NCBI GenBank assembly: GCA_964391505.1
Contig: CAYMMG010000002.1
Coordinates: forward strand, 38,455-102,454
From: an uncultured Burkholderiales bacterium
Lineage (GTDB): Bacteria; Actinomycetota; Acidimicrobiia; IMCC26256; JAGPDB01
Length of the DNA stretch: 64,000 bases
Reading direction: 5' to 3'
Shown here: positions 43,548-53,708 of the stretch, piece by piece
How the letters are laid out: the number at the start of each line of letters is the position of its first letter
How positions within the stretch are numbered: position 1 is the stretch's first letter
Program-made: the position numbers and the translations under genes
The notes under the pieces: generated by a model
The model's database searches: none
What the model was told of the DNA's origin: nothing
Seen by the model: only the letters and a program-made list of their open reading frames with translations

Positions 43548-44309
43548 GTGAAAGACAACAATGTAAAAATTTTCATCGCAGAACTCATCGGTACGATGGT
43601 ACTTGTCTTGGGTGGCTGCGGTACAGCTGTACTGGCAACAGGGGGATTTCCCATTGATGCCGAGAATGGTTTAGGGCTCAGTGTGGGCGTCCTCGGGGTG
43701 GCCATCGCATTCGGTCTCACCGTATTGGTCATGGCTTATGCCATTGGACCAATCTCTGGATGTCACATCAACCCTGCTGTAACTCTGGGCATGGTCATCG
43801 CCAAGAAAACACAAGCATCAATGCTTCCTATCTATTGGGCAGCACAGTTCGCTGGTGGAATCGCGGGGGCACTGGTCATCAAAGTTATAGCCAGTGGCGT
43901 TAAGGGCTGGAAGATGCCTACAGGCGCTGGAGCATTCGCAACCAACGGTTACGGAAAACTTTCTCCCGGAGGATTTTCTCTCGGAGCAGTTGCAGTCGCC
44001 GAAGTTATTCTGACAGCATTGTTTGTGTTGGTCGTTATTCACACAACGCGTAAAGATTTTGCAGCTGGTTTTGGCGGAATTGCGGCAGGCTTAATGCTCA
44101 CCCTTGTTCACCTCATCTCGATTCCTGTGAGTAACACATCAGTGAACCCTGCACGAAGCTTCGGTGTTGCATTGTTCAAAGGTGGAGATGCATTGAGCTC
44201 GCAGGTGTGGGCATTCTTTGTGTTCCCTTTTGTGGGAGCCATCATTGCTGCCGTGATTGCTGCTTATGTCTTAACGGAAAACAAGAAAGTCACGACGACA
44301 GCTAATTAG
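43548..44309 (+). CDS. aqpZ: aquaporin Z (MIP family)
   Basis: Two NPA boxes ('HINPAVT', 'VNPARS'). AGGAGG lies 7 nt upstream of the GTG start. Confidence 0.9.
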   Translation: MKDNNVKIFIAELIGTMVLVLGGCGTAVLATGGFPIDAENGLGLSVGVLGVAIAFGLTVLVMAYAIGPISGCHINPAVTLGMVIAKKTQASMLPIYWAAQFAGGIAGALVIKVIASGVKGWKMPTGAGAFATNGYGKLSPGGFSLGAVAVAEVILTALFVLVVIHTTRKDFAAGFGGIAAGLMLTLVHLISIPVSNTSVNPARSFGVALFKGGDALSSQVWAFFVFPFVGAIIAAVIAAYVLTENKKVTTTAN

Positions 44310-44314
44310 TGGAT

Positions 44315-44341
44315 GTCATCCTGAGCGCAAAGAAGGATTTC
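44315..44341 (+). repeat. GTCATCCTGAG...GAAGGAT dispersed repeat (short copy)
   Basis: 'GTCATCCTGAGCGCAAAGAAGGATTTC'. Confidence 0.65.
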
Positions 44342-44361
44342 AGGATTACAGCAATATATTG

Positions 44362-44392
44362 AAAAGTGGGGTGCAATTGCGCCCCACTTTTT
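44362..44392 (+). terminator. rho-independent terminator after aqpZ
   Basis: 'AAAAGTGGGGTGC-AATT-GCGCCCCACTTTTT'. Confidence 0.7.
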
Positions 44393-44437
44393 CGTATGTG
44401 TAAGATTTGTGCTTTCGAGACATCAAAGGATTGAGCA

Positions 44438-45208
44438 ATGAGTAGTTTCAGCACTGATAGCCGTATTGCAGCAACACCGCGCCAAGCACTTCATCTTGCG
44501 GATGCAGAAGCGCGCCTGTTAAACCACAATTACATTGGCACAGAGCACATACTTTTAGGTCTTATCCATGAAGGTGAAGAAGACGAGAGTATTGCCGCAA
44601 AAGTTCTAGCGTCACTAGGCATCTCACTCGAAGCTGCTCGCGAGCAAGTCAAAGTTATTGTTGGCCCGGGAGAGGTTCCTCTTGATAAACAAATTCTCTT
44701 TACTCCCCGTACCAAGAAAGTTTTAGAACTCTCACTGCGTGAATCATTTCTACTGGGTTCTCCTACCATCGAAACTGAACATATCTTGCTCGGACTCATC
44801 CGTGAAGGCGAAGGAGTCGGTGCACAGATTCTCGCAAAACTGGGTGCGGACCTTCCTCGTGTTCGCCAAGCAATTATCAACGAAATTGCAGACAAGCCTC
44901 TCAGCGCAGAAATTACTGACGAGGATGCACCCACTGGTGAACCTCTCACACATCGTTCCCTTGGAGCGGTAGCTGCTGACGTTATGGGAGCGGGATACCA
45001 CTTGCGCGCAATGGCCCGGGGAACTCATCAACCTGGCGAAGAACCACCTGTTGTAACCGAAACAGAGATACGTCATAGTGTCGAACTTTTGAGACGTCTT
45101 GCCGATGACCTAGTGAGCATTCCTTTTCGTGAAATCAAAGCTTCACTACAGGCCAACCGACCTACAGAAACAGCAAAAGCTCAGGAACCACGTACACCCG
45201 ATTTATAA
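44438..45208 (+). CDS. stand-alone Clp_N (double Clp-repeat) domain protein 1, with about 100-aa unknown C-terminal region
   Basis: '[24 protein letters not shown]...' and a second repeat '[30 protein letters not shown]'. No AAA+ module. Confidence 0.85.
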   Translation: MSSFSTDSRIAATPRQALHLADAEARLLNHNYIGTEHILLGLIHEGEEDESIAAKVLASLGISLEAAREQVKVIVGPGEVPLDKQILFTPRTKKVLELSLRESFLLGSPTIETEHILLGLIREGEGVGAQILAKLGADLPRVRQAIINEIADKPLSAEITDEDAPTGEPLTHRSLGAVAADVMGAGYHLRAMARGTHQPGEEPPVVTETEIRHSVELLRRLADDLVSIPFREIKASLQANRPTETAKAQEPRTPDL

Positions 45209-45251
45209 ATAGCTAAATAAACCCTCGACACCACAAAGCAAAGGATTGACC

Positions 45252-45968
45252 ATGTTTGAACGTTTTACCGAAAGAGCCCGCGTCGTCATAGTTCTTGCGC
45301 AAGAAGAAGCCCGCCTGTTGAACCACAATTACATTGGCACAGAGCACATCTTGCTCGGTCTCATTCGCGAGGGACAAGGTGTTGGCACCAAAGCGCTTGA
45401 GTCTTTAGGTATCTCAATTGAAGCAGTTCGTGGAGAAATAGAAGAAACTATCGGTAAAGGTGACTCTGTGAATATTGGGCATTTTCCCTTCACGCCTCGA
45501 GCCAAGATAGCTTTAGAAAAAGCGTTGCGAGCACTCCTAAATGACACAAGTCATAGAAACTATGTCGATACAGAACATATTCTTATGGGAATCATTGAGC
45601 TTGATGAAGGAACCGCCAAAAATGTATTGGGAAAACTTGGATTAGTCTTCAACGACTTGGCAATTGCTCCTGGCGTCAAAATAACGGTCGACCAGCTTCG
45701 TCAGTACGCAATGCACCCTCCATTAGAACCTTTCCTTGCTGAAGCAAAATCTGAAATCGAACGTGTTATCACATCTTTTTCAGATCAACTTGCAACTGTT
45801 CGAAACGAGAAAGAGCTGGGACCTTGCATTATGGAACTTCGTGGAGATCTTGCAGCTATACACCAAACAATCGTGGCACATAGACGTAATATTTGGTCAA
45901 CAAATGCCAATCAACCCCCCACTCCACAAGAACCACCAGCTGCAGGAGTAGGTCTCGCGGACCACTAG
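45252..45968 (+). CDS. stand-alone Clp_N domain protein 2 (closest to the ClpC N-terminus), with about 100-aa unknown C-terminal region
   Basis: '[65 protein letters not shown]' versus ClpC '[65 protein letters not shown]'. Confidence 0.9.
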   Translation: MFERFTERARVVIVLAQEEARLLNHNYIGTEHILLGLIREGQGVGTKALESLGISIEAVRGEIEETIGKGDSVNIGHFPFTPRAKIALEKALRALLNDTSHRNYVDTEHILMGIIELDEGTAKNVLGKLGLVFNDLAIAPGVKITVDQLRQYAMHPPLEPFLAEAKSEIERVITSFSDQLATVRNEKELGPCIMELRGDLAAIHQTIVAHRRNIWSTNANQPPTPQEPPAAGVGLADH

Positions 45969-45999
45969 TTGAAACCATTCTCACATCAAAGGACTGCCC

Positions 46000-46539
46000 A
46001 TGTTTGAAAGGTTCACGGAAGATGCCCGGCGTGCAGTGGTGTCCGCACACTTCGCCGCACAGTGTTTAGGAGATAAAAGTATCGGGACAGAACATCTCCT
46101 TCTGGGTATAGTAATTAACCAAAGCGGTATTTCTTCTCGTGTATTAGACGACAAGAATATTTCCTTTGACGCCGTGTACGAACAGCTCAAAGAGCTCAGA
46201 GGCGGACAGCTACATCCTTCACCAGATCGACCGATCTCTCCTGATGACTTACGGCACCACATGGACCCAGACCAAAAAACAAGTAACCGTCCCTCTCACG
46301 AACATATTCCTTTTAGTCGCACCCTCAAAGATGCTCTCAGTGCCGCCTTACCGAAGGCCATCGAATTGCACGATAACTTTATAGATCTAGAACACCTTCT
46401 TCTTGTTCTCGCAGACTCCCCTGAATGCAGGGCAAAAGAAATCTTTACTCGATTAGGAACTTCTGCTCCTGAGATTCGAACCGGACTTTTGCTCGCACTT
46501 CCTGCGCGTGAAAGCGCCCATCCTCCCCTTTCCTTGTAG
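46000..46539 (+). CDS. stand-alone Clp_N domain protein 3 (diverged, long inter-repeat linker)
   Basis: 'MFERFTEDARRAVVSAHFAAQCLGDKSIGTEHLLLGIV' and a second repeat 'FIDLEHLLLVLADSPECRAKEIFTRLG'. Confidence 0.8.
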   Translation: MFERFTEDARRAVVSAHFAAQCLGDKSIGTEHLLLGIVINQSGISSRVLDDKNISFDAVYEQLKELRGGQLHPSPDRPISPDDLRHHMDPDQKTSNRPSHEHIPFSRTLKDALSAALPKAIELHDNFIDLEHLLLVLADSPECRAKEIFTRLGTSAPEIRTGLLLALPARESAHPPLSL

Positions 46540-46645
46540 GAAAAGGAGACTGCGAAATCAACGTCGCATAGTGTCTAAGATTAAAATCTTGCGTCCAAGA
46601 TGTCTTTTATCGTATGATTTATAACTTCGACGTTCAAAGGAATGA

Positions 46646-47182
46646 ATGATGACAACACTTTCTCCACGATACCTCCGCGGAAACACTCCTTTACCACCAG
46701 GTATGGAACATTATGCTACAAATGCAGTGCGTGCAATTGTCTTCGCGAATAGTGCAGCTCGTCAGAACAGATCCTCTGTCATTTCATCCAAACACCTTTT
46801 GATCGGCATCTTACAACTGCCTCATAGCGCGGCACGCGATTCTTTGGCACAGCTCGGTGTTTCCATTGAAGATCTGCAAACCGAAATTGAAGTCGGACTT
46901 GATCCACTTTCGCACGGGGCAGAAAGATTTATCCCTTTCACAGAAAACGCAAGAAGGGTTCTCGATCAAGCCGAGGAGTCTCTTGAATCAGAAAGAACAC
47001 ATCTCGATGTAGGGCATCTCCTCCAAGCGATCGTCGACATCCCTGAATGCAGCGCAGCCAAAACTCTCGCCCGATACGGTGTCACATCCAGCAATCTGCA
47101 ACCACAAGTTTCAGGTTTTCGTAGCGACCGTGTAGCTCGGTACTCTCCTTCGCGACCGGGCCCCGACCTCTCTTCGCGATAA
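46646..47182 (+). CDS. stand-alone Clp_N domain protein 4 (most diverged)
   Basis: 'VISSKHLLIGILQLPHSAARDSLAQLGVSIEDL' and 'HLDVGHLLQAIVDIPECSAAKTLARYG'. Confidence 0.7.
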   Translation: MMTTLSPRYLRGNTPLPPGMEHYATNAVRAIVFANSAARQNRSSVISSKHLLIGILQLPHSAARDSLAQLGVSIEDLQTEIEVGLDPLSHGAERFIPFTENARRVLDQAEESLESERTHLDVGHLLQAIVDIPECSAAKTLARYGVTSSNLQPQVSGFRSDRVARYSPSRPGPDLSSR

Positions 47183-47288: not shown

Positions 47289-48194
47289 TTGGGAACACTT
47301 GCATCCTGGGGAGCTTTTGATGTTGCCGTCGCAGTCGCAGGAATGGGTGCAACATCAACTTTATGGCTATCGATTTTCTCGGCTCTCATTTTTGGCGGTA
47401 TTGCGTACCTACGGAGAGAGAAAGTCACACAAACACAAGTGCGATTTATTTTTCCTCGTGCGTGTGCGCGCGTTGCCAGTTTATGTTTCATGCTCGCGTC
47501 ACTCAGCATGTTTCCCGTGGGCGTTGTCATCACCATCTCAGCAGCTTCATCATTTATTGAATTAAGCATCTTCGCACGAAAGCGTAATGAAGATGTGCGA
47601 ACCCTCACTTACCTTTTTTCTGCCGTGGGAATGTTCGGAATCTTTCTCGTCTCTCGCGAACAATCGGCAGGAGCATTCTTCTCATTCGATATCGAACTTT
47701 TGATCCCAATCTGTGGAACTCTCATCAGCGCTTACTCGAAGCTTCTCTGGAGAGATTCCGCACACACAATGCATCCGATTCATAATCTTGCAATTCTTCA
47801 TACATGGACAGCCATCTTGAGTGTTCCTGTTATCCTCATCCTGTCATTACTAACACCGACTCAAATTCTTCCCACAAGCAACATTGTCGCGCTCACTTGC
47901 ATCGTTGTTTTTGCCGGTATTGGCGACGTCCTGTTTTTACGATCCCAACTTCACACTACGATCACCATCAATGCAATTTTCTCACCTTGTACGCCCGTTT
48001 TCGCTTCGCTCTTTGCGCTCGTGGTTATGCACCAACATTTAGCCTGGTGGCAATGGACTGGTCTTTTTATCGTCGTAAGCAGCGTTTCGCTCTCGACGAT
48101 AACGGCTCAACGTAAACGCCCCGTTACGGCTCTGCAGCCCTATTTTCCAAACGAAGTAGTCCCTCTCGAAGAACAAAAACTGGGAATTGCTTAA
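47289..48194 (+). CDS. DMT/EamA-like permease (paralogue 1)
   Basis: About 10 hydrophobic segments, two-fold internal layout, 'SWGAFDV' near the N-terminus. Tentative family call. Confidence 0.5.
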   Translation: MGTLASWGAFDVAVAVAGMGATSTLWLSIFSALIFGGIAYLRREKVTQTQVRFIFPRACARVASLCFMLASLSMFPVGVVITISAASSFIELSIFARKRNEDVRTLTYLFSAVGMFGIFLVSREQSAGAFFSFDIELLIPICGTLISAYSKLLWRDSAHTMHPIHNLAILHTWTAILSVPVILILSLLTPTQILPTSNIVALTCIVVFAGIGDVLFLRSQLHTTITINAIFSPCTPVFASLFALVVMHQHLAWWQWTGLFIVVSSVSLSTITAQRKRPVTALQPYFPNEVVPLEEQKLGIA

Positions 48195-49258: not shown

Positions 49259-50746
49259 CTATTCGTCAGCCTCATCAGCATAAACATCTTTTGCAACACT
49301 TATTCCCACAGTTGCAGCACCCCACTCCTCTGAACATCGACGCAATGCGGAAGCTATGTGACGCGCAAGAGAAGGGCCCGGAGGAATATCGTCAGCAAGT
49401 GAGAAATCGAGGATCCCATAGTTAGTTCCGGGGTAAGCTGTCACTGACCCAAAAGGGTCCAAGTTCGTTTGCTCTTCCGTGCGCACGACAGCTTCGGTAA
49501 ACCGATTCAAGTCAGCATCGCCTTCCAAGTGGTCTTCCCCATCATCGCGATACCGAGTAAATAGTTCCATGGTTTTCGTTTCATCAAAACTTCCCGCTTG
49601 ATAGACCCTCACCTTTGCCCAGGGAACAGTGTCTCCCGCAGCTTGAATCGCATCTTCGAGCGTTTCTATAAAATCATCATGAAGATCTTCAACTAAACCT
49701 GACACTGCTAAATCTTGAAGAACTTCGAATGGAAAATCAGGAAGAGCATTGGAGACGTAACCAAGTCCATCGCCAATTCGTGTGTTGAGTTCATTAATTA
49801 CATAACCATTGCGACCCGCAATACCGTCACAGCAAAATGCACCGCGATAGTCATAATCTCGTCGGAGTGCCTCTCCTACTTGCCGAGCAATCGAACGCAT
49901 CTCGACACGCAACTCAATTGAGGGTTGCCAATAAGTATTTGTACCAGCAAACCAAAATTTTCCATGCTCACCTCGAAGGACAAGTAGTTCAACCGGACGA
50001 AAAACAGCGACTCCATCTGCAAGAACAAACCCATGGATCGAGCACGGGCGTCCTTCCACAAATTCGGCTATGCGCACACTCTCGCACGCACTTGAAAACT
50101 TACGAACGAAATGACCAATGTCTTCAGGTTCAGCATTCGGGCGTAACCAGCGAACCATATTCCCTCGCGAGTTCAATCCCAAAGTATTGTCGCCTGACCA
50201 CACTGTTCCGTCGCCACTGTTAATAAGTTCAGATGCCTGCGTCATTGCGTCGCGTGTGGCATCGACAACTGTTGAACGAGGAGCTGGGATGGAATGTTGG
50301 GCAAAGAAACCATCAATGAAAGTTTTGTCTTCAAGTTGGATCCAGTCTTGTCTACGACATGCATCGATACGACGACCAAAGGCATTCGTTGCGGTACGGA
50401 AACGGAATACTGTAAAAAATGCTTTACCTTCAGGATCAAACTGCTCAAGTGCATCTTTAATTTCTGGCGTTGGGTTTTCAAAGAGTTCATTCCAGCCATC
50501 TTCATATGTATAGTTTTCTGGATTAATTGCGAGATCGACTTCAATTTGTGTCACATCATCGCCAAGATCGACTTCTGCGTTAAGCATGGTGCGAAGAGTT
50601 ATAGCCAGAAAAGGTCCAGCACCCAAGGTGCGTAATTGTGCAATTTTTGCTTCGAAAGAAGATGCGCCGTCACCAGTAAAAATGAATTTCCGTCCCTGAA
50701 CACGTTCTCGCACATAATCACGGATGTCGTCTAGCGAACCAGTCAC
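49259..50746 (-). CDS. ATP-grasp-like protein of unknown substrate (495 aa)
   Basis: 'VRIAEFVEGRPCSIHGFVLADGVAVFRPVELLVLRG...DYRGAFCCDGIAGRNGYVINELNTRIGDG' resembles the C-terminal half of ATP-grasp ligases (E-x-N-x-R). Confidence 0.4.
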   Translation of the reverse strand: MTGSLDDIRDYVRERVQGRKFIFTGDGASSFEAKIAQLRTLGAGPFLAITLRTMLNAEVDLGDDVTQIEVDLAINPENYTYEDGWNELFENPTPEIKDALEQFDPEGKAFFTVFRFRTATNAFGRRIDACRRQDWIQLEDKTFIDGFFAQHSIPAPRSTVVDATRDAMTQASELINSGDGTVWSGDNTLGLNSRGNMVRWLRPNAEPEDIGHFVRKFSSACESVRIAEFVEGRPCSIHGFVLADGVAVFRPVELLVLRGEHGKFWFAGTNTYWQPSIELRVEMRSIARQVGEALRRDYDYRGAFCCDGIAGRNGYVINELNTRIGDGLGYVSNALPDFPFEVLQDLAVSGLVEDLHDDFIETLEDAIQAAGDTVPWAKVRVYQAGSFDETKTMELFTRYRDDGEDHLEGDADLNRFTEAVVRTEEQTNLDPFGSVTAYPGTNYGILDFSLADDIPPGPSLARHIASALRRCSEEWGAATVGISVAKDVYADEADE

Positions 50747-51074: not shown

Positions 51075-53708
51075 TTATTCAGCAGCGGGAGCGGCAGCAG
51101 CGCCAGGATTCTTCTTAGGTGTGGTTTTCACGGCACCGGAAATTCCAGCAACACCGGGGTCACTGGACTCGCTAGCCTCACCACTCACGACGTCTTCAAC
51201 CTTGGAGATAGTTGGCATGCCTTTGAAGGTGACTTCTTTTTCACCCGAGACAGGGTTGCCATCTTCACCGAGCTTGTCTACAACATCGACAAGAACAGTT
51301 TCACCTGCGTGGAATTCCTTGTTCAGAATCTTCTCCGACAATGGATTCTCGATTCGACGCTGAATTTCACGACGGAGTGGACGCGCACCCATGGTTGGGT
51401 CATAACCCTTTTCGGCAATATAGAACTTGGCTTCTTGCGTGAGTTCCAAGCCAATTCCTTGGCTCATGAGTTGTACACGAGAACGATCAATGAACAAGTC
51501 GACAATTTCTGTCACTTCTTCACGAGTCAGCTCAGCGAACACAATCACTTCATCGACACGGTTCAAGAATTCAGGACGGAAGTGGCCCTTGAGCGCTTCC
51601 ATTGCCTTATCTTTCATCTTTTCATACGAATAACCTGAAGCAGAAGAACCGAAACCCACATTGGATTTGCGCAGGTCTGCAGTACCCAAGTTCGATGTCA
51701 TGATGATGACAGTGTTCTTAAAGTCAACTGTTCGACCCTGTGCGTCGGTGAGGTGTCCGTCTTCGAGCACTTGCAAGAATGTATTGAATACCTGCGGGTG
51801 AGCTTTTTCGATTTCATCAAGCAACACGACAGAAAATGGCTTACGACGAACAGCTTCGGTCAACTGACCACCTTCATCGTATCCCACGAATCCTGGAGGC
51901 GAACCGAAGAGTCGAGAAACTGTGTGTTGGTCCATATATTCAGACATGTCGAGCTGGATCATTGCATCTTGATCACCAAACAAAAACTCGGCAAGAGTTT
52001 TTGCGAGTTCGGTTTTACCCACACCCGATGGTCCTAAGAATATAAAGCTTGCGCTGGGGCGCTTCGGATCTTTAATCCCTGCACGCGTACGGCGCATAGC
52101 CTGACTAACAGCTTTGACTGCTTCATTCTGGCCAATAATGCGGTGGTGAAGCTCTTCTTCCATGCGCAAAAGCTTCGCAGTTTCTTCTTCGGTCAACTTG
52201 TACACAGGTATACCTGTCCACATCGCGAGAATTTCTGCAATCGATTCTTCGGTGACTTCATTGAAAAGATCTACGCCCTGTGCCTTCCACTGGACTTCCT
52301 TTTCTTTCATGTCTGCAAGAAGTTCTTTTTCGCGATCACGCATTTGAGCAGCACGTTCGAACTGTTGCGATTCAATCGCTTGTTCTTTCTCTGTACGCAC
52401 GGTTGTGATTTCGTCTTCGAGTTCTTTGTAATCTGCAGGAGTTTGCATACGATGAATGCGTAAACGTGAACCAGCTTCATCAATGAGGTCGATTGCCTTA
52501 TCGGGAAGGAAGCGATCGGAAATGTATCGGTCGGCTAAGTTTGCTGCAGCCACAATTGCTTGATCGGTAATGGTGACCTTGTGGTGAGTTTCGTATCGAT
52601 CGCGAAGACCTTTGAGAATTTCAATCGTCTGAGCAACGGTAGGTTCTTCAACCTTAACTGGTTGAAAACGACGCTCTAAAGCTGGGTCTTTTTCGATATT
52701 CTTTCGGTATTCGTCAAGAGTGGTTGCACCAATAGTTTGCAATTCACCACGAGCCAACATCGGCTTAAGGATACTTGCAGCATCGATGGCGCCTTCAGCA
52801 GCACCCGCACCAACAAGAGTGTGCATTTCATCGATGAACAAAATGATGTCACCGCGTGTTTTAATTTCTTTCAGAACTTTCTTCAGACGTTCTTCAAAGT
52901 CACCTCGGTATCTCGAACCTGCGACTAATGCTCCGAGGTCAAGTGTGTAGAGTTGCTTACCTTCAAGAGTTTCAGGAACATCATTCGACACAATTTTTTG
53001 CGCGAGGCCTTCTACAACTGCGGTCTTACCAACACCAGGTTCTCCAACGAGGACAGGGTTGTTCTTTGTGCGACGTGACAAAACTTGCATCACGCGCTCG
53101 ATTTCTTGTGCGCGGCCAATAACAGGGTCGAGTTGTTTTTCGCGAGCCAGTTGTGTGAGATTGCGACCAAACTGATCGAGCACCATCGAACCAGCAGCAT
53201 TACCTTGTTCTTCGCGTCCACCGATTCCAGCAGGAGCTTCGCGTCCACCCGAAGATGCAGTACCGCCTTGGCCATACCCAGAAAGAAGTTGAATGACTTG
53301 TTGACGCACGCGAGAAAGATCTGCGCCGAGCTTTACGAGTACTTGTGCAGCCACTCCTTCACCTTCACGAATGAGCCCAAGCAAAATGTGTTCTGTACCG
53401 ATGTAGTTGTGTCCGAGTTGAAGAGCTTCACGGAGCGAAAGTTCGAGTACCTTCTTGGCACGAGGGGTAAAGGGGATATGGCCGCTTGGAGCGGCTCCAC
53501 CTTGACCAATAATTTCTTCGACTTGCCCACGCACAGCGTCGAGCGAAATGCCCAATGACTCGAGTGCCTTGGCTGCAACTCCTTCACCCTCGTGGATGAG
53601 GCCTAAGAGGATGTGCTCAGTGCCAATGTAATTGTGGTTTAAGAGACGCGCTTCTTCTTGTGCAAGGACAACGACGCGACGGGCTCTGTCGGTAAAGCGC
53701 TCAAACAT
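51075..53708 (-). CDS. clpC: ATP-dependent Clp protease ATPase subunit ClpC (ClpC1 type)
   Basis: Clp_N repeats, two AAA+ modules ('GEPGVGKTA', 'GPSGVGKTE'), UVR-like linker; 877 aa. Confidence 0.95.

Follow-up and report, generated by a model that had tools for sequence, protein, structure and literature searches.

What use might a bacterium have for four free copies of the docking domain of its own unfoldase? The question is raised by a 64,000-nucleotide stretch of contig CAYMMG010000002.1 (assembly GCA_964391505.1, positions 38,455 to 102,454; deposited as an uncultured Burkholderiales bacterium and placed by GTDB in the Acidimicrobiia), hereafter the window. Within it, four consecutive genes on one strand each encode the double-repeat N-terminal domain (Clp_N) of ClpC, and a full-length clpC gene lies nearby. 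The array is a real feature and its genes are not pseudogene fragments. Our preferred reading, to which we assign a probability of roughly 0.5, is that the encoded proteins act as soluble competitors that buffer the ligands of the ClpC N-domain. The four genes and their products, P1 to P4, are:

44438-45208, + strand: gene 1 (P1, 256 residues), Clp_N double repeat at about residues 9-150, then a C-terminal tail of about 105 residues
45252-45968, + strand: gene 2 (P2, 238 residues), the most ClpC-like N-domain at residues 1-130, then a tail
46000-46539, + strand: gene 3 (P3, 179 residues), Clp_N double repeat whose inter-repeat linker is enlarged by about 25 residues, tail-less
46646-47182, + strand: gene 4 (P4, 178 residues), Clp_N double repeat that has diverged furthest, preceded by an 18-residue N-terminal extension

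The original observation, of four same-strand genes with Clp_N and without an ATPase module, was to be checked by a profile search with Clp_N (PF02861), and that search supported the domain in every case. All four reading frames are intact, and all four products exceed the Pfam gathering cut-off of 20.7 bits, with whole-protein scores of 95.8, 88.7, 68.4 and 50.1 bits and E-values of 1.7e-27, 2.7e-25, 6e-19 and 3.2e-13 for P1 to P4, respectively. Two stretches pass the cut-off in each of P1, P2 and P3 and one in P4, whose second repeat is covered by a Protein Data Bank (PDB) alignment (P4 residues 15-155 against ClpC1 2-143). The Pfam scan returned no AAA family match for any of P1 to P4, which thus lack the AAA+ D1 and D2 modules of a class I Clp/Hsp100 unfoldase, and NCBIfam gave only partial N-terminal matches to the ClpA, ClpB, ClpK and ClpG models, far under their cut-offs. 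The best PDB sequence matches of P2, P3 and P4, the three proteins searched, were ClpC1 N-domains, and the match spanned the entire N-domain for P2 and P4. The Clp_N module begins at residues 1-20 in all four proteins, any added sequence being C-terminal in P1 and P2, and it is the sole domain of P3 and P4. The N-terminal MFERF motif is remodelled in P1. Gene 2 has an alternative TTG start at 45246, and gene callers begin gene 4 at 46649, giving a protein of 177 residues. None of the PADLOC defence models has a family matched by P1 to P4 or by their relatives. The locus sequence is identical across several independent public assemblies.

Structure prediction was carried out for P2. Single-sequence AlphaFold2 gave an unusable model with a predicted local distance difference test score (pLDDT) of 43, and the version used here was built on a 75-sequence alignment, with pLDDT >90 over residues 1-130. 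The top Foldseek matches of this model were N-domain structures of Mycobacterium tuberculosis ClpC1 (E = 9e-14; target-normalised template modelling score 0.84-0.89) that carry cyclomarin, rufomycin, ecumicin or lassomycin, and the Clp_N fold of P2 superposes on the solved ClpC N-domains. A Foldseek search of BFVD gave no significant match.

The residues that line the ligand pockets differ in a graded way along the array. In the numbering of ClpC1, with which the window ClpC is collinear, the phosphoarginine (pArg) residues are T6, T30/E31, T81 and T105/E106. Crystal structures of ClpC2, a free N-domain homologue of ClpC1, show its pArg pocket lined by the residues that correspond to T6 and T105 (PMC13345244), and F2, F80 and E89 are critical for cyclomarin A binding (PMC10030653). 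At these positions, the four proteins carry:

P1: A6, T30/E31, T81 and T105/E106; D, F and E at cyclomarin positions 2, 80 and 89; one pArg pocket, by residues
P2: T6, T30/E31, T81 and T105/E106, all kept; F, F and E; both pArg pockets, by residues
P3: T6, T30/E31, S81 and L105/E106; F, F and S; one pArg pocket in part, by residues
P4: A6, S30/K31 and V105/G106; M, F and D; neither pArg pocket, by residues

The comparison of pArg- and drug-binding residues that had been proposed for this family thus sets P2, which keeps all of them, apart from P1 and P3, which keep part, and from P4, which is without both pArg pockets. P4 carries E31K and E106G, and its orthologue in the sister species (locus L013) is identical to it at all pArg pocket positions. 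Because the orthologue has exactly the same substitutions, the loss of pocket residues in P4 is fixed, and not a sign of decay.

Free N-domains of this kind have a precedent as competitors. ClpC2 (Rv2667; PDB 8ad9, 8b9o and 9p2p) is an ATPase-less homologue of the ClpC1 N-domain found only in Actinomycetota; it sequesters cyclomarin and rufomycin, binds pArg, keeps the cyclomarin-contact residues and one pArg pocket, and serves as a sponge or competitor for ClpC1 ligands (PMC10030653, PMC13345244). ClpC3, a small Clp_N-only protein, is reported to bind N-domain-directed antibiotics and to compete with ClpC1 (Hoi et al. 2023, as summarised in PMC12678426 and PMC10864484). The review PMC12678426 describes both ClpC2 and ClpC3 as inhibitors that compete for ClpC1 degrons, ClpC3 being without a pArg receptor.

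We infer a competitor role for the array proteins from residue conservation, and ligand binding, competition with ClpC and any role for the tails belong to the same inference. Without an ATPase motor, P1 to P4 could bind but not unfold. The ClpC hexamer presents six N-domains, and the free ones would compete with these for common ligands, the candidates being pArg-tagged or other N-domain-recognised substrates, adaptors, and N-domain-directed toxins of competitors or phages. The outcome would be ClpC-ClpP proteolysis that is buffered or retuned, as shown for ClpC2 and reported for ClpC3. P2 would be a full mimic, binding what ClpC binds, and P1 and P3 would be partial mimics binding a subset; P4 would resemble ClpC3, having given up pArg binding for some other ligand. 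The predicted helical-hairpin tails of P1 and P2 could add a surface for self-association or partner binding.

Where the array came from bears on what it might do. The window's own clpC lies 3892 nucleotides from the end of gene 4, encodes the domains Clp_N, AAA, AAA_lid_9, UVR, AAA_2 and ClpB_D2-small (Pfam), and is 87-93% identical in protein sequence to the ClpC of more distant relatives. The features that tie it to the array are:

51075-53708, - strand: full-length clpC (877 residues), the presumed parent and functional partner of the array
44522-44550, + strand: gene 1 copy of a 29-nucleotide stretch, identical to the gene 2 copy and coding for 10 residues
45321-45349, + strand: gene 2 copy of the stretch, identical to the gene 1 copy
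53611-53639, - strand: clpC copy of the stretch, with one mismatch
44425-44430, + strand: Shine-Dalgarno sequence AAAGGA of gene 1

Identity to the ClpC N-domain is 63% for P1, 65% for P2, 37% for P3 and 26% for P4, in keeping with the graded similarity first noticed. The first 65 residues of P2 match ClpC closely, although at 54/65 identical (83%) the earlier wording of "nearly identical" slightly overstated the case. The 29-nucleotide tract common to genes 1 and 2, one nucleotide off in clpC, was found exactly as described. It had no match in 100 shuffles, and since the identical run between genes 1 and 2 has p = 0.0018 when synonymous codons are permuted and the protein alignment is kept, it exceeds chance and fits a short conversion tract. 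The sequence AAAGGA-N6-ATGTTTGA occurs exactly three times in the window, at gene 2, gene 3 and clpC, and genes 1 and 4 retain AAAGGA alone, which confirms the start contexts originally reported. A strong AAAGGA Shine-Dalgarno is present at every one of genes 1 to 4, and the Clp_N/clpC family accounts for five of the window's nine AAAGGA-N4-8-ATG sites. The shared start context was also considered as a regulatory motif and rejected, as a strong Shine-Dalgarno and the conserved MFE codons account for it.

The clade-specific residues L22 and AVRG are common to P2 and the organism's own ClpC, and the G+C content of the four genes (0.45-0.50) matches that of clpC and its neighbours. A local origin of the array from its own clpC is plausible, and is favoured by the shared Shine-Dalgarno and start context, the 29-nucleotide tract, the L22/AVRG residues and the normal G+C. 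The copies themselves are old relative to clpC, since the synonymous divergence (dS) between the paralogues and clpC is saturated (1.3-1.8). The proposal of serial duplication of the clpC 5' end therefore holds in part: origin from the local clpC is plausible, but a serial order finds no support, given the saturated dS and an unsupported tree. That tree, the N-domain phylogeny that had been suggested, is a neighbour-joining analysis of 25 N-domains with <35% bootstrap at its key nodes, and it does not separate local from foreign origin.

Old copies might simply be functionless duplicates heading for loss, and some observations lean that way: the sister species has lost gene 3 by deletion, most relatives have no array, and gene 4 is under weaker constraint than most of its neighbours. 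Compared with its L013 orthologue, gene 4 has 85% protein identity, a nonsynonymous divergence (dN) of 0.078, a dS of 0.216 and a dN/dS of 0.36; the genes neighbouring the array, compared between the same two species, have dN/dS of 0.02-0.27 and dS of 0.43-0.77, most of them at dN/dS 0.02-0.10 and the adjacent 275-residue membrane protein at 0.27. Nevertheless, the four frames have stayed open after dS >1 from clpC, each gene retains its Shine-Dalgarno, P4 shares its altered pocket residues with the orthologue in the other species, and dN/dS is well under 1 in every comparison. The possibility that the genes are pseudogenes, which dN/dS near 1 would have signalled, was checked in this way: the ratio is 0.36 for the gene 4 orthologues and 0.14-0.17, a rough estimate, for genes 1 and 2 against clpC. 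We consider the decay of functionless copies highly improbable, and the four genes are very probably functional by these sequence measures. An attempt at a within-population ratio (pN/pS) drew on extra contigs that proved to be 99.95-100% identical to the window or to L013. As a separate observation, the dS between gene 4 (46646-47182) and its orthologue (L013 6295-6831), at 0.22, is under that of all flanking genes (0.43-0.77), yet its dN/dS is higher; recent interspecies exchange or synonymous-site constraint could produce this pattern.

The layout of the array suggests that its genes are expressed together. Upstream of gene 1 lies the following feature:

44361-44393, + strand: hairpin and U-run of an intrinsic terminator, separating the MIP (aquaporin-type) gene from gene 1

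The fold at 44355-44400 has a free energy of -26.5 kcal/mol (z = -7.5 against 200 shuffles), and 44362-44434 is 93% conserved in the sister species. The intergenic spacers in the array are 43, 31 and 106 nucleotides long, and no + strand terminator is predicted inside it. Owing to the upstream terminator and the short spacers, genes 1 to 4 likely form one transcription unit, separate from the MIP gene, and would be co-transcribed.

Comparison with relatives shows that the array occupies a variable slot in an otherwise stable region. With RadA as an anchor, four syntenic relatives were found in a collection of species-representative genomes, all of them metagenome-assembled and labelled as Acidimicrobiia (two), Actinomycetota (one) and Burkholderiales (one). 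The backbone runs radA, the 275-residue membrane protein, the MIP channel, the slot, zero to two EamA transporters, a 495-residue ATP-grasp-like protein, clpC and a polyprenyl synthase, and it is conserved in seven relatives. The slot holds no Clp_N gene in L010, L011, L014 and L016 (RadA 66-77% against the window), one Clp_N gene (245 residues) and two small open reading frames without assignment in L009 (RadA 84%), three Clp_N genes in the sister species L013 (RadA 94%), and four in the window. The three-gene version was seen again in seven further contigs. A metagenome scan anchored on the neighbouring 495-residue gene retrieved four loci, none with the array.

The two sister species differ in more than number. 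The orthologue of gene 4 is present in L013, and gene 3 was present in the common ancestor: a remnant at L013 6903-6963 retains its Shine-Dalgarno, GTG start and about 16 codons, and in L013 6832-6992 a deletion of about 540 nucleotides joins this remnant to the sequence that precedes the gene 4 orthologue, leaving a 41-codon open frame. In place of genes 1 and 2, L013 has a single gene of 382-384 residues that unites two N-domains, one similar to that of ClpC and one diverged, with a helical tail resembling that of P2. On either side of this segment the DNA is 87-93% identical, but the best-matching coding parts have dS >1.4. Hence either the two species lost different members of a larger array in their ancestor, or recombination replaced a cassette. 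The third Clp_N gene of L013, encoding 284 very diverged residues, is absent from the window. For the competitor reading, an accessory and fast-changing slot (zero to four genes, gene 3 deletion, gene 1/2 replacement) fits a response to variable external ligands.

Several further observations were made in this region. The locus L009 (CAZFAO010000030.1), titled Burkholderiales, is probably mis-binned or mislabelled, because it is syntenic with the Acidimicrobiia loci and its RadA and ClpC are 84% and 91% identical. The 495-residue protein (49259-50746, - strand) stands beside clpC in all seven Acidimicrobiia relatives at 70-93% identity; it has no PDB sequence match and a weak match to ATP-grasp_3 (E = 0.058). 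That clpC has a ligase- or kinase-like gene conserved at its side is notable in a phylum whose pArg-degron enzyme is unknown. The start of the first EamA gene differs between the window (47289-47420) and L013 (5157-5213): the conserved protein begins at "KVTQTQVRFIF" and the upstream frames differ, which puts the annotated start in doubt or points to a possible frameshift. Finally, L097 8001-8993 encodes a 330-residue protein with two N-domains in the usual position of clpC, divergent from the polyprenyl synthase gene; the gene after it is cut by the contig end, and this could be a split or rearranged clpC.

A variable slot also invites the explanation that these are domesticated or resident genes of mobile elements, tools by which phages or plasmids blunt host ClpC, and that the array is a remnant or insertion instead of a clpC duplication. 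Stand-alone N-domains are indeed carried by such elements. Plasmid records matching P2 number 76, some with full-length clpC and others with Clp_N-only genes. On the plasmid pPA-B-2242 of Pseudarthrobacter sp. BIM B-2242 (NZ_CP061722; L018 2752-6906), four annotated Clp_N-only genes lie within 4.2 kb, close to a type IV secretion coupling protein, and small mycobacterial plasmids carry stand-alone N-domains as well. The mycobacteriophages Myrna (gp251, L019 2971-3678) and Phabba encode N-domain-only proteins. In IMG/VR, 67 viral contigs (L027-L093) hold relatives of the ClpC N-domain, 51 of them as stand-alone open reading frames of 129-396 residues that typically combine an N-domain with a tail of 60-180 residues, much as P1 and P2 do. 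The core pArg residues (T6, T30/E31 and T105/E106) are kept in 41-48 of these 51, and position 81 is Thr in 36 and Ser in 10. All four window proteins match PHROG 35667, a family annotated as "unknown function". On the other hand, no integrase, transposase, tRNA target or phage gene was found in or beside the slot, the G+C of 0.45-0.50 is like that of clpC, the 29-nucleotide tract and start context tie the genes to their own clpC, and the window tails are not homologous to those of phage or plasmid proteins. The tree, for its part, gives no foreign origin and excludes none. On balance, we regard a mobile-element origin as unlikely.

On the plasmid side, the Mycobacterium avium plasmid p3-JPH1 (L094 3887-4267) and related Mycobacterium intracellulare plasmids of 13-15 kb encode an N-domain homologue with 48% identity to P2. 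These are small mobilisable plasmids; the PLSDB table for p3-JPH1 has no coding sequence at that position, and the match is labelled "hypothetical protein" in the search output. Beyond plasmids and phages, thousands of metagenomic Clp_N-only proteins match P1 at E <= 1e-5, and most of the 12 that were retrieved contain two N-domains in one polypeptide, the second of them often diverged. On one metagenomic contig (L096 8001-11022 and downstream), two adjacent Clp_N-only genes, encoding 341 residues with two N-domains and 663 residues with a faint UVR match, lie directly upstream of genes for ThiF (E1-like), EAD1/UQ_con (E2-like), a JAB peptidase and an AAA protein, with a CHAT protease gene upstream. 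There, the free N-domains appear to be parts of a ubiquitin-like conflict system.

The tails of P1 and P2 raise another possibility. The C-terminal additions of about 100 residues, noted from the start as being of no recognisable kind, proved to be about 105 residues each, with no Pfam match at E up to 1 and no helix-turn-helix or other DNA-binding domain. In the P2 model, helices are predicted at residues 146-154, 158-183 and 186-219 (pLDDT 60-84), followed by a disordered proline-rich end, so the tail is predicted to be a helical hairpin. When the P2 tail was searched against 5.8e9 proteins, it returned only a truncated copy of P2 itself, and against 1.84e9 representatives one marginal match, likely arising from coiled-coil composition. 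A phmmer search of all tails against the open reading frames of the fetched loci, phages included, and the retrieved proteins gave only a weak link between the tails of P2 and of L013 gene A. The tails of P1 and P2 thus appear to have no detectable relatives outside this lineage.

Such tails could make the proteins adaptors or cargo receptors, in which one module docks on ClpC (or on ClpP, in the manner of the plant protein ClpT) and the other part binds cargo, for delivery or assembly. The helical hairpin predicted at moderate confidence for P2 suits this idea, as do the helical tails with proline-rich ends of the related sister-species and L009 genes, and the N-domain-only proteins ClpT1 and ClpT2 of Arabidopsis are among the structural matches of P2. 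Against it, the tails are lineage-restricted and differ between the paralogues, no common docking module is evident, P3 and P4 have no tail at all, and substrate delivery to bacterial ClpC is not known for any N-domain-only protein. We therefore hold an adaptor function to be doubtful.

The competitor reading has its own difficulties. The conservation of ligand-pocket residues in P2 may merely reflect slower divergence from clpC. The saturated dS makes dN/dS against clpC rough, and only one true orthologue pair, gene 4 and its L013 counterpart, was available for an estimate of selection. The tails are without counterpart in ClpC2 and ClpC3, and the proteins may accordingly do more than sequester. 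Cyclomarin-type toxins are not known from the habitat of this uncultured Acidimicrobiia. Lastly, no arginine kinase is known in Actinomycetota (PMC13345244), and the natural pool of pArg is uncertain.

A bolder version of the competitor reading casts the four proteins as decoys in an arms race over the ClpC N-domain, each copy tuned to a different attacker. Phages, plasmids and competitors would target or imitate that domain by means of phage N-domain mimics, phage adaptor-like proteins, of which SPO1 Gp53 is one, and cyclic-peptide toxins, and the host would respond with a cassette of free N-domains that turns over fast. Phage N-domain mimics may be a widespread means of interfering with host ClpC, judging by the viral proteins described above. 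An arms race, if true, would account for pockets that diverge by degrees, for tails confined to one lineage and for the differing gene sets of the sister species, but we consider it a long shot at present. More broadly, the array variants, together with the abundant phage and plasmid N-domains, suggest that the docking domain of ClpC is a contested surface in nature.

The existence of the array is unsurprising in principle, as free-standing paralogues of the ClpC N-domain are already known in ClpC2 and ClpC3. ClpC1 is a leading antibacterial target, and these free N-domain "caretakers" blunt ClpC1-directed drugs. The window proteins had been likened to ClpC2, and here the comparison fails. In ClpC2, Clp_N is C-terminal, behind an N-terminal dimerisation/DNA-binding domain, whereas it is N-terminal in the window proteins; ClpC2 is encoded by a single gene and represses itself via a palindromic operator, whereas the window has four genes in tandem without that operator; and the window tails are either unrelated or absent (P3 and P4). 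In sequence, the window proteins are nearer to the ClpC1 N-domain than to ClpC2, with E = 1e-49 against 1e-15 to 1e-20 for P2. The operator CGTCAAC-N5-GTTGACG has no match with <3 mismatches in the window and none near 44300-44440; at <=3 mismatches the window has 5 matches against 2.9 expected, a chance level, and none of them is near the array. As far as sequence can tell, none of P1 to P4 is a ClpC2 orthologue. This also bears on whether the array encodes ligand-sensing transcription factors, oligomers on DNA that are released by pArg or a toxin, which is how ClpC2 acts (PMC10030653, PMC13345244). The helical tails of P1 and P2 could in principle dimerise, but the ClpC2-type N-terminal domain, the operator and any helix-turn-helix or DNA-binding Pfam domain in the tails are all missing, and each array gene is preceded by a leader with a Shine-Dalgarno, a leader that transcripts of clpC2 are suggested to lack. 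Regulators of this type are thus a very remote prospect.

ClpC3, compared here by its description only, resembles part of the array: P3 and P4 share its minimal Clp_N-only layout, and P4 is, by residues, without both pArg pockets. P4 has only two matching protein clusters among 5.8e9 sequences, none beyond the sister-species orthologue, which argues for a lineage-specific origin. The plant proteins ClpT1 and ClpT2 (PDB 4y0b and 4y0c) are also ATPase-less and have a double Clp-N, but they are plastid proteins with just 26-28% identity. They bind the ClpP/R core and aid assembly of the ClpP ring. The phage proteins resemble P1 and P2 in their N-domain and tail layout, in size (about 200-330 residues) and in up to 57-60% identity to the P2 N-domain, and differ in having non-homologous tails and mostly single genes. 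By residues, both pArg pockets are retained in most of them.

The closest public analogue of the array is the pPA-B-2242 cluster, whose genes (146, 162, 273 and 301 residues) are on the same strand, two of them directly adjacent and two with C-terminal extensions. Unlike the window array, it is on a plasmid near conjugation genes and interspersed with hypothetical genes; it comes from another class (Actinomycetes), has extensions unrelated to the window tails and is known from annotation only. The original remark that no described four-gene array was known must be qualified to that extent, for an annotated cluster exists, although the literature search yielded no paper describing Clp_N arrays or phage N-domain mimics. 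As far as the literature was searched, no earlier description was found of four tandem chromosomal genes whose pockets are lost by degrees and whose set turns over between sister species. The array extends the free N-domain principle beyond the Mycobacteriales, to a small-genome uncultured member of the Acidimicrobiia, and multiplies it into a co-oriented four-gene unit whose members differ at pArg- and cyclic-peptide-binding residues and are reshuffled between sister species. P1 to P4 offer a natural panel of pocket variants for studying N-domain recognition in Actinomycetota, a phylum with no known pArg kinase.

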